The translations under genes were made by a program, and so were the position numbers. From NCBI GenBank assembly GCA_963662615.2, contig CAXXSR010000001.1, positions 1,088,001 to 1,152,000 of the forward strand: a stretch of 64,000 nucleotides of DNA, written 5' to 3'. This DNA is from Dehalococcoidia bacterium. Lineage in GTDB: Bacteria; Chloroflexota; Dehalococcoidia; Bin125. Under the pieces are notes generated by a model, which saw only the letters and a program-made list of their open reading frames with translations, was not told the origin of the DNA and did no database searches. Below, in pieces: positions 879-5,422 of the stretch (position 1 is its first letter; every line of letters starts with the position of its first letter).

Positions 879-2399
879 GTGCGCTCGCCTGTCGCCCCCC
901 GTTCCGGCGTCCCACGTCACAGGCGCCCGCCGCGGGCGCTCCTCTTCGGCCTCGTCGCGGTCGCCGGCTTGCTCCTCTTCGCCTGCGGCGACGACGTCCC
1001 CCGCCGCGCCGTGCACCTCTCCGAACTCGACAACGACATCGGCCCGGTGACGGCCAACTTCGTTGACCGCGCCCTCGATCACGCCGAGAACCATGACGCC
1101 GCCGCCTGGATCCTCCTCCTCGACACGCCCGGCGGCCTCGTCACCGCCACCGACGACATCGTCCAGCGCATCGCGAAGGCAACCGTGCCTGTGGCGGTCT
1201 ACGTCAGCCCCGCCGGCGCCCGCGCCGCCTCCGCCGGCACCTTCATCACCATGGCCGCGCACGTCGCCGCCATGGCGCCCAGCACACAGATCGGCGCGGC
1301 CACGCCGGTGGGCGCGGGCGGCGCGGACATTGAGGGCTCCTTGGGCCGCAAGATCCTCAACGACGCCTCCGCCGACATTCGCGCCATCGCCCAGCTGCGC
1401 GAGCGCAACCAGGAATGGGCCGAAAGCGCGGTCCGCGAAGCGGTCTCCGCCACCGCGGAGGAGGCCGTCGAGCTCAACGTCGTCGACCTCGTCGCCACCG
1501 ACGTCACGGATCTCCTCGCCCAGATCGACGGGCGCAGCATCGTCCTCGCCGGCTTCGTCGCGGGCGAGCCCGCCGGCCCCGCCCTCACGATTCGCACCCG
1601 CGGCGCGCCCATCGTTGAGACCAACATGAACTTCTTTGAGAACGTGTTGGACTTCGTGGCGGACCCCAACATCGCCTTCCTGCTCATTACCCTCGGTGGT
1701 CTCGCCTTGGTGATCGAGCTGTTCTCGCCGGGCCTCCTCGGCCCCGGCATCTTCGGTGTGATCGCGCTCCTGCTCGGTTTCTTCGCCTTGGGCAGCCTGG
1801 ACACCAACCCGGCCGGGCTCGCCCTGCTCGCCATCGCCCTCGTCCTCATCGTCGCGGAGATCTTCGTGGCCGGCTTCGGAGTGCTCGGGATCGGCGGGAT
1901 CATCGCCCTCTTCTTCGGCGGCCTCTTGCTGATCAGCGACTCCCCCAACGCCGAAAAGGTCTCGCTCTGGCTTCTCTTCGCTGTCGTAGCCGCCGTCGCC
2001 GCCACGGTCCTCGCCCTCTTCCTCCTGATCGTGAGCGACCGCCGCAAGCAGAAGGTGGCCACCAGCCTCGCCGACCGTATGGTCGGGCAGACGGGCGTCG
2101 TCCGCTCCACTCTCGACCCCGTAGGTACCGCGCTCGTCGGCTCCGAACTCTGGACCGCCCGCAGCGAGGGCGGATCCCTCCCCGCCGAGACCCCCGTCCG
2201 CGTTGTCGGCGTCGACGGTCTCCGCCTCCTCGTCGAGGCCCCCGCGGCTGCCGAGGGCAGCCAGGACTCCGAAGACACTCCGGACACCGAAGACACCGTC
2301 GCGCCACCGTCCCCGCCCGACGCGCCGCCGCTCGAGCGCCCGCCGGGGTCCAGCGCCGCTAGGGAGGGGTCGGAGAAGCCGCCGGCGGACGCAGGCTGA
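879..2399 (+). CDS. nfeD: NfeD family membrane-bound serine protease (long form)
   Basis: LDTPGG, AASAG, IGAATPV and RKILND motifs, TM block and C-terminal OB fold (GELWTA-like SELWTA). GTG at 879 follows GAAGGGA. Confidence 0.9.
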   Translation: MRSPVAPRSGVPRHRRPPRALLFGLVAVAGLLLFACGDDVPRRAVHLSELDNDIGPVTANFVDRALDHAENHDAAAWILLLDTPGGLVTATDDIVQRIAKATVPVAVYVSPAGARAASAGTFITMAAHVAAMAPSTQIGAATPVGAGGADIEGSLGRKILNDASADIRAIAQLRERNQEWAESAVREAVSATAEEAVELNVVDLVATDVTDLLAQIDGRSIVLAGFVAGEPAGPALTIRTRGAPIVETNMNFFENVLDFVADPNIAFLLITLGGLALVIELFSPGLLGPGIFGVIALLLGFFALGSLDTNPAGLALLAIALVLIVAEIFVAGFGVLGIGGIIALFFGGLLLISDSPNAEKVSLWLLFAVVAAVAATVLALFLLIVSDRRKQKVATSLADRMVGQTGVVRSTLDPVGTALVGSELWTARSEGGSLPAETPVRVVGVDGLRLLVEAPAAAEGSQDSEDTPDTEDTVAPPSPPDAPPLERPPGSSAAREGSEKPPADAG

Positions 2400-3165
2400 C
2401 CTCACCGGCAAGAAAGCGTCGCCGCTCCCCCGTCTCCAGGCGCACCACCAGCGCCCCCTCCTCCGTCACGTCCTCGGCCACCCCCTCCACCACACCACCG
2501 GCCTGGTCCGCCAGGCTGACGGGCCGTCCCAGCGTCTCCAGCCGTGCCCGCCACCCCTGCAGCAGCGCCGGCGTGGTGGCACCGTCGTAGGCCCGTTCAA
2601 AGGCGTTCAGCGTCGCCGCCAGGATCGGCTCGCGCGCCAGCGGCCTGCCCCGCTCCAGCGCCAGGCTCGTGGCCGGTCCCTCAATGGCGCCGCCGAACGC
2701 GCCGGGGTCGAAGTTGACGTTGATGCCAATCCCCACCAGCGCGAAGCGCGGCCGCCCCCCCACCCACTCGCTCTCCACCAAGATGCCCACGAACTTCTTG
2801 CCCCGCAGGTGCAGGTCGTTCGGCCACTTGATCCGCGGGTAAAGGTTGACCACCTGCTCCACCGCGTTCGCGACCGCCACCGCCGTCAGTATGCTCAGCC
2901 GCTGCAATCGCGCCGCCGAAGGCCGCACCACGATGGTGAAGTAGAGGTTTTGCCCCCCCGGGGAGACCCAGGACCGGCCGCGCGTCCCCCGGCCCCGGCT
3001 CTGCTCCTCCGCGATGACGACGGTGCCCGTCGGCGCTCCGTCCTCCGCGGCGGCGCGAGCGTCGTCCATCGTCGACGTGGTGCGCAGGCGATAGATCAGC
3101 CGCCGCCCCACCCGCCGCGTGCGCAGGTCCTCGGCCACGGCCTTGCGGCTCAGTCGGACTCCCAC
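2359..3165 (-). CDS. birA: Biotin--[acetyl-CoA-carboxylase] ligase
   Basis: STMD, QSRGRGTRGRSW, KWPND and KKFVGIL motifs. Likely leaderless GTG at 3165, 6 nt after a TACCGT -10. Confidence 0.93.
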   Translation of the reverse strand: MGVRLSRKAVAEDLRTRRVGRRLIYRLRTTSTMDDARAAAEDGAPTGTVVIAEEQSRGRGTRGRSWVSPGGQNLYFTIVVRPSAARLQRLSILTAVAVANAVEQVVNLYPRIKWPNDLHLRGKKFVGILVESEWVGGRPRFALVGIGINVNFDPGAFGGAIEGPATSLALERGRPLAREPILAATLNAFERAYDGATTPALLQGWRARLETLGRPVSLADQAGGVVEGVAEDVTEEGALVVRLETGERRRFLAGEVSLRPPAASPTPP

Positions 3166-3219
3166 GCCCCCACGGTAGGCCGCATCACTGTGCGGAGCGA
3201 AACCGTGCGCAACGCGAGC

Positions 3220-3253
3220 AAAGAGCAAGCCCCCGGCTCGCGCCGGGGGCTTG
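3220..3253 (-). terminator. Intrinsic terminator hairpin
   Basis: Perfect 12-bp stem CAAGCCCCCGGC/GCCGGGGGCTTG with a 4-nt loop, followed by CTCTTT on the minus strand. Confidence 0.75.
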
Positions 3254-3279
3254 TCAGATTTCGTGCCCAGGTGATGCTC

Positions 3280-3348
3280 CTAGGACTCACCCACCTCCTT
3301 CGATGCGCGGTCGTCGGCTCCATCCCTGGGCAGCAAACTATGTCCCAA
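3280..3348 (-). CDS. Putative 22-aa peptide MGHSLLPRDGADDRASKEVGES
   Basis: TTG start 5 nt after a 12-nt perfect SD; TAG stop at 3282-3280. Confidence 0.4.
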   Translation of the reverse strand: MGHSLLPRDGADDRASKEVGES

Positions 3349-3661
3349 GTCGCATCACCTCCTTTCCTGCTCTCCAGTGTACCAGGCCTTCCTGATCCCC
3401 ACTATGGCGGCAAAGACCTGCCCCCCAATGGCTGGGAGGGACCGCCTCCGGTAGGCGCTGGCGTCGGCCCGCCCGCTCCGATGCCGAGCGACCCGAAACC
3501 GCGGCGATTACCCGAAATTGTTCGACGGCTTGGCTGACCTGCTCAAGCCTCTCCTGATAAACCGCTTAGGGTTTGATCGATCTCGTACATGACGAGGGCC
3601 CTATGAAAAGCCGTACGAAAAACTACACGCCTTGGGATTGTCAAGGTCGCGATGCTGGGGA

Positions 3662-3970
3662 CTACATCTCCATCACTTCGGCGACTTCAACTGTGCCCAT
3701 TTCAAGGAACGGGCACCCCTTCACCATTGCAACAGCAGCATCCATGCTGTCGGCTTTCACGATAGAAAAACCCATCAAGGGATTCGACCCACCATCGTCT
3801 GAGACGCCACCGGAGCTTACGGTCTTAGCCTTTCCCAAGGGAGTACCGGGGTTGACCACGGCATCCCCCAGGCCGCCGACCCAGGATTCGAATCTCGCCT
3901 TTTGTTTGGCTCCCTCTTCAGGGCTCTCAGGCATTTTCCCACCGTGATAGGCAAGGACGTATTCAGACAT
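3662..3970 (-). CDS. YciI-like protein
   Basis: MSEYVLAYHGG...W...G...VNPGTPLG...GFSIVKADSMDAAV...CP...GTVEV pattern. Visibly lower GC than the neighbours. Confidence 0.8.
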   Translation of the reverse strand: MSEYVLAYHGGKMPESPEEGAKQKARFESWVGGLGDAVVNPGTPLGKAKTVSSGGVSDDGGSNPLMGFSIVKADSMDAAVAMVKGCPFLEMGTVEVAEVMEM

Positions 3971-4036
3971 CGATCTCCTCTTTCTCATTTGCAGTTCGTA
4001 AGACGCTCTAGTTTCCGAACCAACGATCGTGAGGTC

Positions 4037-5386
4037 TTACAGATTGCCCGTCACCTCTTTGACCCCCTCCTCCACGATGGTGAGGATCGCGTCCACCTCC
4101 TCCGCCGTCGCCACCAGCGGTGGCGCCAGCACGAAGGAGTCCCCGCGAATGCGCGTGATCAGACCCCGACGTTGGCAGGCGTTCCGCAGCCGCACGCCCA
4201 TGCGCATCTCCTCGTCGAAGGGGACGTCGTTCTCGGGATCTTGCAGTAGGTCCAGGCCGCACATGAAGCCCAGCCCCCGCACATTGCCCACGTAGCGGTT
4301 CTCGCCGAGCAGCATCAGCCCGTTCAGAAGCTGCTCGCCCCGTGCCGCAGCGTTCTCCACCAGCCCCTCCTCTTCGATGATGGCGAGGTTGCGCAGCGCC
4401 ACCGCCGCCGCAACGGCGTGACCCGAGTTCGTATAGCCGTGCATGAACTTGACGCTGGGGTCGGCGCCGGTGATCGTCTCGAACACCTCCCGCGACCACA
4501 CCGACGCCCCCAGCGGCATGTACGCGCTCGTGATCGCCTTCGACACCGACATCAGGTCCGGCAGCACCCCAAAGTGCTCCAGCGCGAACCACCTCCCCGT
4601 GCGGCCGAAGCCCGTGATCACTTCGTCCGCGATCAGGAGCACCTCGTAGCGGTCGCAGACCTCGCGTAGCTGACGGAAGTAATCCGGCGGCGGCGGGTGG
4701 ACGCCACCGCCGCCCTGCACCGGCTCCGCGATCACCGCCGCCACCGTCTCCGGCCCCTCTCGCTCGATCGTCTCCGCAATGTTGTCAACATTGTTGTTGC
4801 CGGGATCAATGCGCGCCCCGCCGCTCGGCATCGGCTCCACGCTCGCCGCCGGCACGATCTCGTGTACCCGCGGTTCAAAATTGGGGTAATACATGGACAT
4901 CCCCGTCGCCGACATGCAGGCCAGGGTCGTCCCGTGGTACCCCTCCACCCGGCTGATCACCTTGACCTTCCCCGGCCGCCCCTTCATTGCCCAGTAGAAA
5001 CGCGCCGTCTTAAAGCTGGTCTCGTTTGAATCCGCGCCCGAGGTGCCGAAAAACACCGCCTGCATGTTGTCGTAGGCCAGCTCCACCAGCTTGGCCGCCA
5101 GCTCAATGGCCGGCTCGTTGCTGGAGCCCACGTAACTGCTGTTGAAGGCCAGCCGCTCCATCTGCCGCGCGGCGGCCTCCGCCAGCTCTCGGCGCCCGTG
5201 CCCCACCGCCACGTTCCACAGCGAGGAGAGGCCGTCAATGTAGCGCTGCCCGTCGTGCCCGTAGAGGTAGATCCCTTCCCCTCGCTCGTACAGCAGCGGC
5301 TCCTGGTGATCGCTGGGATGGGAGAGCGGATGCACCCAGTGGGCGAGATCTTTCCGCACCAGCTCCCGGTACCGTGCATCGTCCAT
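4037..5386 (-). CDS. Class III PLP-dependent aminotransferase (omega-amino acid/diamine type)
   Basis: YIDGLSSLWNVAVGHG, GYHG, AEPVQGGGG, LIADEVITGFGRTG and the PLP lysine in SKAITS. Confidence 0.92.
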   Translation of the reverse strand: MDDARYRELVRKDLAHWVHPLSHPSDHQEPLLYERGEGIYLYGHDGQRYIDGLSSLWNVAVGHGRRELAEAAARQMERLAFNSSYVGSSNEPAIELAAKLVELAYDNMQAVFFGTSGADSNETSFKTARFYWAMKGRPGKVKVISRVEGYHGTTLACMSATGMSMYYPNFEPRVHEIVPAASVEPMPSGGARIDPGNNNVDNIAETIEREGPETVAAVIAEPVQGGGGVHPPPPDYFRQLREVCDRYEVLLIADEVITGFGRTGRWFALEHFGVLPDLMSVSKAITSAYMPLGASVWSREVFETITGADPSVKFMHGYTNSGHAVAAAVALRNLAIIEEEGLVENAAARGEQLLNGLMLLGENRYVGNVRGLGFMCGLDLLQDPENDVPFDEEMRMGVRLRNACQRRGLITRIRGDSFVLAPPLVATAEEVDAILTIVEEGVKEVTGNL

Positions 5387-5422
5387 GCTGAGTCCTTCCT
5401 TGCGATCCACCCTCGACGGCGA

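Follow-up and report, generated by a model that had tools for sequence, protein, structure and literature searches.

The 64,000-nt window analysed here, the whole stretch from position 1,088,001 to 1,152,000 of contig CAXXSR010000001.1 (Dehalococcoidia bacterium, assembly GCA_963662615.2), carries a compact unit on its minus strand (3384..3216) just upstream of a biotin protein ligase gene, birA. This element is about 150 nt long from predicted promoter to terminator and contains a micro-open reading frame (micro-ORF) that is led by one Shine-Dalgarno (SD) sequence, SD1, and holds another, SD2, close to its stop codon. It is a real, conserved and previously undescribed RNA gene distributed across a class of Chloroflexota. 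An earlier note, made from the letters of this stretch, had listed an extended -10, SD1, a TTG-initiated ORF, SD2, overlapping pairing segments and a 12-bp terminator; we found all of them on the minus strand, where the parts lie as follows.

3376..3384, minus strand: extended -10 TGGTACACT, with the hexamer TACACT at 3381-3376, as read from the sequence.
3368, minus strand: predicted transcript start, an A 7 nt 3' of the -10, placed by promoter geometry.
3354..3367, minus strand: SD1, GGAAAGGAGGTGAT, with 13 Watson-Crick pairs and one G-U pair to the 16S 3' tail.
3366-3354, minus strand: AAAGGAGGTGAT within GAAAGGAGGTGAT, the core of SD1.
3280..3348, minus strand: micro-ORF MGHSLLPRDGADDRASKEVGES, with its TTG start at 3348, 22 codons and a TAG stop at 3282-3280.
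3321..3332, minus strand: 5' arm of helix P1 inside the ORF, UGCCCAGG (3332-3325; also TGCCCAGG) plus GAUG, from the 185-nt fold.
3292..3301, minus strand: SD2, GAAGGAGGTG, ending exactly 9 nt ahead of the stop codon.
3271-3264, minus strand: 3' arm of helix P1, CCUGGGCA (CCTGGGCA), from sequence and fold; the whole segment is 3264..3277.
3277-3269, minus strand: anti-SD1, GCATCACCT (GCAUCACCU), overlapping the P1 3' arm.
3216..3253, minus strand: intrinsic terminator, a 12-bp stem (3253-3226) followed by CTCTTTGCTC, with a CTCTTTG tail.
3163..3177, minus strand: start region of birA, outside the RNA, with TACCGT at 3177-3172, 6 nt, and GTG at 3165; birA itself is 3165..2359.

The single 16S gene detected in this genome has the 3' tail ...GGAUCACCUCCUUUCU. 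Because the 16S ends in ...GGAUCACCUCCUUUCU, SD1 is a perfect complement of 13 nt, one more than the earlier note had counted, and the G before it can wobble with the terminal U. By promoter geometry, the RNA is predicted to start one nucleotide ahead of GGAAAGGAGG, at a conserved A, and pairing to the 16S tail would begin at position +2 of that RNA. A scan of the whole assembly showed that SD1 is the sole 16S-tail complement of at least 12 nt in the 2.66-Mb genome, the opposite strand of the ribosomal DNA itself aside, and that the combination of an SD, a small ORF, G[AG]GGTG-N9-stop and a terminator occurs once. Folding of 161 nt (-79.1 kcal/mol, z = -5.4, 0/200 shuffles as good) paired SD1 with GCAUCACC, while folding of 185 nt gave an alternative helix, UGCCCAGGGAUG/CAUC-A-CCUGGGCA. 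Both of the mutually exclusive helices proposed earlier were thus seen, and which of them appears depends on the length of 3' sequence folded. The presence of the locus was confirmed in the DNA runs X1 and X6. Extra contigs in these two runs match only the block from SD1 to the start (window 3337..3370), at 90-99%, and diverge beyond it, so relatives with their own copy of the element co-occur in the same samples. A further run, X7 (possibly RNA), contained nothing across 2900-3800 and weighs neither way.

We found the element throughout the family of the window's genome and beyond it. A BLAST search against 40 relatives detected the region in many genomes of this family, and a covariance model built from 22 sequences recovered one full-length copy in each of 63/65 genomes, covering all 10 genera. 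One of the two misses (G003) was weakly matched under laxer filters, and the other (G010) is a genome that is 84% complete. The earlier note had asked whether homologues conserve the nucleotides or the peptide; they conserve the RNA signals and the helices, not the peptide. Across 401 genomes of the class, a TTG-type search pattern matched 39, and the true matches are the 28 genomes in families f1 and f2 (24/25 in f1 plus the window's own genome, and 3/3 in f2). We rejected the 11 matches outside f1 and f2 as carriers: a reversed control pattern matched 13 genomes, and the five stray genomes that were inspected, as well as a second match in G019, proved to be ordinary coding DNA (the other six lay outside the inspection). 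The TTG-type match in G097, of the family f6 that is otherwise without the element, reads AGGAGGTGATGCAGTTGG (C1:1218299-1218316) and is identical to the variant of genus g3.

An ATG-type pattern matched 61 of the same 401 genomes versus a single match for its reversed control. These matches fell in f16 (22/25), f20 (5/5), f25 (4/5), f26 (1/1), f27 (6/8) and f30 (6/8), and in 17/221 genomes of other families (f53, f58, f88, f48 and f38). All 30 of the 62 ATG-type places that were fetched (from f20, f26, f27, f30, f53, f58 and f88) have the same architecture; the places from f16 and f25 are among the 32 uninspected ones. Together, the two patterns place the element in 13 families of the class. 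A search of public genomes by BirA alignment, in which 80 loci were scanned with the model, yielded 11 matches, all just 5' of birA and including distant ATG-start loci. Carriers among the close relatives are labelled as Dehalococcoidia or Chloroflexota metagenome-assembled genomes, and one (L140) is labelled Tepidiformaceae; Tepidiforma strains exist in culture. Related genomes in all these counts are not independent, and it is because the unit is conserved across relatives that the arrangement exceeds chance.

The predicted promoter, SD1 and start codon keep a fixed geometry in the homologues. A TAnnnT hexamer lies 19 nt (±1) 5' of GGAGG in 89/92 distinct sequences, with TG ahead of it in 56/92 and a -35 with at least 4/6 matches in 59/92. 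Contiguous pairing to the 16S tail, counted throughout against the tail of the window's genome, extends over 14 nt in 83/92 distinct homologues and over at least 13 nt in 89/92. The bases 5' of GGAGG, which lie outside the search patterns, vary mainly as A/G swaps opposite U. The start codon always follows 8-9 nt past GGAGG and is TTG in 53, ATG in 5 and CTG in 3 of 61 distinct sequences, and all 30 further ATG-type loci start with ATG. A five-codon ATG mini-ORF (MQLGT-stop) overlapping SD1, its ATG within the SD duplex, was rejected as a candidate: it is not conserved, and in g3, f2 and all ATG-type families this ATG shares its frame with the real start. Predicted accessibility of SD1 itself is near one half in most lineages and intermediate in the window and g5 (unpaired about 0.35-0.4); only in g9 is SD1 almost fully paired. 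Modelling thus indicates that the SD1-hiding switch of the earlier note, which holds for this sequence, is a lineage-specific addition and no general trait, because the anti-SD1 sequence is restricted to genera g1, g5 and g9 and sequestration of SD1 is near-complete only in g9.

The micro-ORF keeps its frame while its peptide varies. It has 19-25 codons in our first set of loci and 15-24 in the second set, the ATG-type loci. The homologous frame is open to a structurally fixed stop in 61/61 distinct sequences (TAA 28, TAG 27, TGA 6), and five ORF length classes are every one in frame; the +1 frame has stops in 43/61 of these sequences and the +2 frame in 61/61. We looked in 22 distinct 21-codon ORFs for the third-position excess that purifying selection on the peptide would leave, and found none: the summed column entropies at codon positions 1, 2 and 3 were 12.3, 13.6 and 13.9. 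Since the three positions vary equally, the peptide appears free to change. Its conserved 'EV' corresponds to the SD2 nucleotides GAGGUG, where an E-to-G change (GGAGG to GGGGG) keeps the pairing, its middle codons form a covarying RNA helix, and its net charge runs from acidic to strongly basic between genera. Furthermore, 0/6 peptides were present in a collection of 15 billion proteins, and 0/4 matched NCBIfam at E up to 10. We also rejected the idea of a type I toxin mRNA, as the peptides are polar, rich in Ser, Arg, Asp and His, and not hydrophobic. From these comparisons, we conclude that selection acts on the RNA signals and on translation as such, and not on the peptide; what seems to matter is that the ORF is translated, not what it yields.

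Downstream of SD1, the RNA is predicted to form a long imperfect hairpin with its 5' arm in the ORF and an untranslated 3' arm; SD2 lies in the apical hairpin, which has the stop codon at its 3' foot. For 30 diverse sequences aligned to the model, 93.7% of helix cells were paired, compared with 64.4% in shuffles (0/500 reached the observed value) and 36-55% with slid partners. Changes on both sides were seen in 24/25 modelled pairs, with a similar result on 73 distinct rows, and all 7 modelled P1 pairs and all 12 modelled terminator pairs change in this way. The same helix is built from different sequences by lineage (UCGCCCAGG/CCUGGGCGA, GUUGCNAGGCC/GGCCUGGCAAC and CGUAGUUACGGCC/GGCCUUAGCUGCG); these lineage-wide swaps hold irrespective of alignment and so support the helix beyond the model-fitted alignment. 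In ATG-type families, the P1 5' arm begins about 13 nt past the A of ATG.

SD2 (G[AG]GGUG) lies exactly 9 nt ahead of the stop in 57/58 distinct sequences of the window's family that have it, and its sequence is kept though its pairing partner differs among lineages. At most loci of the ATG-type families, a GGNGG-like motif precedes the stop by 6-10 nt, and 11/28 complete loci have a strict match at 9 nt. Fold prediction buries SD2 in the free RNA (probability unpaired 0.02-0.07 in most lineages). The earlier proposal that SD2 is spaced to engage a terminating ribosome agrees with this constancy, and the 9-nt spacing fits a hold on such a ribosome. Another proposal of that note, a 30S sponge, here with two anti-16S sites, fails because SD2 is buried, absent in f2 and degenerate elsewhere.

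An intrinsic terminator was found in 67/67 sequences analysed, with stems of -15 to -34 kcal/mol and U-rich tails. When a ribosome was placed on the stop codon in folding simulations, the terminator was unchanged in 29/33 and 34/34 sequences (63/67); of the four exceptions, three form the hairpin in a shifted register, which leaves L043 as the one sequence with a different fold. When the ribosome was instead stalled early and the terminator 3' arm was still unmade, the 5' arm of the terminator paired upstream over 5.1, 5.0 and 4.3 nt, versus 6.5, 6.2 and 7.5 nt in the respective shuffled controls, and the freed 3' arm of the long hairpin tended instead to fold into a separate local hairpin. 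An antiterminator that competes with the terminator according to ribosome position was sought in these simulations of 67 sequences and not found, and no regulatory codon run is common to the micro-ORFs, in which Ser is abundant in certain lineages but not in the window or f2. Because the simulations show no antiterminator and no such codon run is shared, the terminator is constitutive to the extent that RNA folding can show it. Two loci of f27 (L194 and L195) have a terminator 3' arm and tail, GGCCUCCUUUCUUUU, that resembles the 16S 3' tail and complements the element's own 5' end, and a third AGGAGG within the terminator 5' arm.

The gene downstream encodes a class-I biotin protein ligase (TIGR00121, 152 bits; BPL_LplA_LipB and BPL_C) without a DNA-binding domain. 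Its relation to the element differs among families. In the window's family, birA has a TAnnnT hexamer followed by 6-7 nt and the start codon, and a leaderless birA transcript is plausible there because the hexamer types found ahead of birA (TAGCCT, TACCGT and TACCCT) recur as the element's own -10 in relatives. Tepidiformaceae-like loci and f27 have a birA that starts 14-40 nt past the terminator without a -10 hexamer (in L196 with an SD of its own), and a birA so placed must be transcribed by read-through. This suggests that in many of these genomes a birA without its own promoter or SD depends on read-through from the unit. In f53, a convergent gene follows the terminator in 6/6 complete loci, and in 5/5 genomes searched birA has another location, where the element does not accompany it. 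Because f53 still conserves the element well away from birA, the core function would be independent of birA in cis. The earlier remark that the unit need not be a leader thus holds for some lineages only, and does not hold where birA lacks its own -10. That the unit stands alone from promoter to terminator, as also claimed there, is supported by the -10 geometry, by the terminator hairpin in all but one of the 67 simulations and by f53.

Several features of the neighbourhood vary. In L008, L034 and L035, an extra GC-rich, hairpin-forming insert of 120-250 nt separates the terminator from birA, with TACCCT, 6 nt and ATG kept. The upstream neighbour is a class-III aminotransferase gene in 58 loci (and this gene lies farther away in 7), murE in 7 and another gene in 19; a YCII gene in this position is seen in the window only (2 loci). 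That YCII-domain gene (108 residues, 3988..3662, minus strand, PF03795 E = 1.2e-7) lies between the aminotransferase gene and the element. The aminotransferase (5410..4037, minus strand) scores below all NCBIfam equivalog cut-offs, with 342 versus 405 bits for bioA and 279 versus 450 bits for the daptide-type aminotransferase of ribosomally synthesized and post-translationally modified peptides (RiPPs). Among relatives, the junction 5' of the element is a hot spot of rearrangement. The window's micro-ORF and birA share one reading frame, without a stop between the TAG of the former (3282-3280) and the GTG at 3165 (3348..3163, minus strand). Frame 0 to birA is also open in L003, L008, L042 and L043, and +1 in L010 and L016; the frame is closed in 7/14 loci. 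This openness is probably chance in DNA of 68% GC.

To account for these features, we tentatively favour, with a probability of roughly 0.45, an autonomous small gene whose product acts as RNA, requires the passage of a ribosome and changes shape on being translated; read-through from it would often drive birA as well. The ribosome capture, hold at the stop, open/closed switch and read-through into birA that make up this model are what we infer from the arrangement of parts. Transcription would start one base before the 13-14-nt complement of the entire single-stranded 16S 3' tail; because the transcript would begin 1 nt ahead of that complement, the first bases to emerge could already catch a 30S subunit at the extreme 5' end. 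The ribosome would initiate at the TTG or ATG 8-9 nt downstream, and translation of 15-25 codons would melt the long hairpin. Since the 5' arm of this hairpin lies in the ORF and the 3' arm past the stop, the RNA would have a closed, untranslated form and an open, translated one. SD2, being buried in the free RNA, would be exposed only to a translating ribosome, re-pair with the anti-SD of that same ribosome and hold it on the stop codon; as 8 nt separate GGAGG from the last sense codon, this pairing would take place as the stop enters the A site. Such a hold agrees with the preprint 10.1101/2020.07.24.220731, which reports that, genome-wide, strong rRNA-mRNA pairing is under selection at positions -9 to -22 relative to the stop, and proposes that it halts the ribosome and improves termination fidelity. 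The hold would keep ribosomes out of the 3' arm and the terminator. The terminator would form in every state, making the short terminated RNA the main product, and a small read-through fraction would transcribe birA, or help to do so, in most lineages. The peptide would be a by-product.

Several observations weigh against this model. An indel in f20 shifts the frame over a nucleotide-conserved block, and 2/5 ORFs there stop early. The f20 loci L188 and L192 have ORFs ending after 15 or 19 codons, versus 23-24. Genus g4 has CTG in the start position (3 genomes: L084, L085 and L090, about 1510-1600). The frame behind this CTG is open for 25 codons and encodes a peptide like that of g10. Translation over the full length is therefore not strictly preserved in every lineage. 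Family f2 is without SD2 and has a covarying hairpin in its place. The covariation alignments, fitted to the model as they were, are biased toward the structure. birA lies downstream in 92/93 loci of the first set, in which several genomes were fetched repeatedly and the sole exception ends at a contig end, and in 21/27 loci, which may signal a role in cis that is invisible to folding simulations. A search of the genome for trans targets of the conserved 5' block CTTGGGACATAGT, with up to 2 mismatches and leaving the 3' arm aside, found none beyond six scattered sites. Finally, the transcript ends, translation and the stop pause are all predictions from the DNA letters.

We weighed this model against other explanations. 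The micro-ORF could be a small-protein gene, with a functional, hydrophilic peptide of 19-25 residues (MGHS...EV..S or MD.HS...) whose synthesis is tuned by the RNA structure. Start, frame and stop are kept in 61/61, the peptides recurrently begin with M-D/G, often have His at position 3-4 and carry EV near the C-terminus, g4 and g10 share VRSIARL..EVS.G, and 26/77 single-step codon variants (34%) are synonymous. However, all codon positions are equally variable, the charge swings between genera, SD2 nucleotides explain EV, the middle of the peptide covaries as a helix, f20 shifts frame over conserved nucleotides, and the peptides searched have no match in the protein collection or NCBIfam. 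We therefore rate this explanation as unlikely, and the tightly gated peptide gene that the earlier note had entertained is likewise unlikely because the peptide lacks coding-type conservation. It is also doubtful that the element is first of all a ribosome-binding RNA, a sponge, protector or licensing factor in which the 5' SD would cap the anti-SD of 30S or 70S particles, or titrate it, and the ORF would only release the ribosome. Such a role would suit a complement to the entire 16S tail that is the most invariant feature, unique in the genome, at the predicted 5' end and far longer than initiation requires. The spaced start, kept frame and kept stop are instead traits of an ordinary mRNA, SD2 is hidden in the free RNA, and a single gene copy would need to match ribosome numbers.

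A classical leader-peptide transcription attenuator of birA, in which ribosome position chooses between terminator and antiterminator, would explain why an SD-led short ORF, hairpins and a terminator stand directly 5' of a same-strand birA in nearly all loci of the first set and most of the other 27, and why birA in several families lacks a -10 and begins 14-40 nt beyond the terminator (in L196 with its own SD). This explanation is decidedly unlikely: no antiterminator was found in the simulations, pairing between the 3' arm and the terminator falls below shuffled controls, the codon run is missing, f53 keeps the element without birA, and birA of the window's family has a leaderless-type -10. 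Extremely improbable is a recoding site, at which stop read-through or a frameshift near SD2 and the stop fuses the micro-ORF to birA. The frames open to birA in the window and the loci named above, and an SD near a stop that recalls prfB, would be in keeping with it, but a strong terminator intervenes, the ORFs end in any of the three stop codons, DNA of such GC content often has open frames, and f53 has no downstream birA. We rejected fusion by read-through or frameshift, as the open frame is not conserved (frame 0 in 5, +1 in 2 and closed in 7 of 14 loci).

A more far-reaching idea, which we consider quite unlikely, is that the element serves as a dedicated partner RNA of the anti-SD tail. 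It would pair all 13-14 free 3' bases of the 16S from its own 5' end, in a nearly blunt duplex, and a short 'test' translation would resolve each engagement at the SD2-guarded stop. If so, it could license or proof-read new 30S subunits, shield the mature 16S 3' end from exonucleases, or alter how translation is divided between SD-led and leaderless mRNAs, a role that would suit the adjacent leaderless birA, and it would be a new housekeeping RNA of an entire bacterial class. Under the translation-switched model that we favour, a state of the RNA that truly depends on ribosome passage would make the element a simple natural sensor of translation activity and a clean system for SD pairing at both initiation and termination on one 150-nt molecule. 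With the element, a poorly studied, mostly uncultured group (Dehalococcoidia/Chloroflexota) gains a previously undescribed RNA gene of class-wide distribution, and its design is unusual: a maximal SD at the extreme 5' end, conserved translation without a conserved peptide, an SD-guarded stop and a terminator that is never off.

We compared the element with known systems. No family of Rfam 15 reached its gathering score in window 2600-4200 or in 12 diverse loci, so that neither an Rfam family nor a small-protein family, for which the earlier note had left room, was found to match. The best same-strand match was RF01867 (Caulobacter CC2171), with 21.2 and 28.7 bits versus 75; BSnc120 scored 26.8 versus 114, on the opposite strand, and SorY 29.4 versus 111. 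The 5' GAAAGGAGGUGA and the terminal hairpin of the CC2171 model align with the element, but the middle of the model does not, and the element is not a member. Chloroflexi-1 (RF01698; listed in PMC2864571) was in the Rfam library searched and gave no match, and the literature searched, exclusive of supplements, yielded no description of the element.

Among functional classes, base-pairing small RNAs that also carry a small ORF have examples in SgrS/SgrT, RNAIII/hld and SR1/SR1P. Dual-function RNAs are the subject of the reviews PMC12310071 and PMC12612679. The element resembles them in having a promoter (here predicted) and terminator of its own, a size near 150 nt, and a small ORF that is conserved within a structured RNA. 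Unlike them, it has no identified target or seed, its peptide is not conserved as a protein, and translation seems to be needed for the state of the RNA and not as a second, separate activity. An SD close to a stop codon is also a feature of the prfB frameshift site (see PMC12421855). With prfB, and with the pre-stop SD-like motifs outlined in 10.1101/2020.07.24.220731, the element shares a GGAGG-type motif 6-10 nt from the stop, spaced for the anti-SD. In contrast to both, its motif is fixed lineage-wide in one tiny ORF (9 nt, 57/58), is a strand of a hairpin and comes with no conserved frameshift product. Standby-site or structured-start mRNAs, reportedly described by de Smit and van Duin, are said to use a strong or upstream anchor on which the 30S awaits the opening of a helix in the start region. 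They resemble the element in having a very strong SD ahead of a start region whose downstream part joins a helix, and this likeness offers an idea of mechanism and not a family.

Attenuators that work through a leader peptide and depend on the ribosome include trpL, hisL and thrL. Like these and rnTrpL, the element has a short SD-led ORF, a hairpin that overlaps the ORF and an intrinsic terminator ahead of a gene, and in both cases, by prediction for the element, the leader released at the terminator is a separate small RNA with a possible activity of its own. A released attenuator RNA of this type is rnTrpL of Sinorhizobium meliloti, with its peptide peTrpL, as outlined in PMC7298713, 10.1101/606483 and 10.1101/864512. 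The element differs from the attenuators in that it has no antiterminator, no codon run and a constitutive terminator; moreover, it has a maximal SD at its 5' end and an SD-like motif before its stop, and in one family it persists without the downstream gene. On these comparisons, we place the element, a member of none of the families named here, with the translated small RNA and leader-RNA kind.

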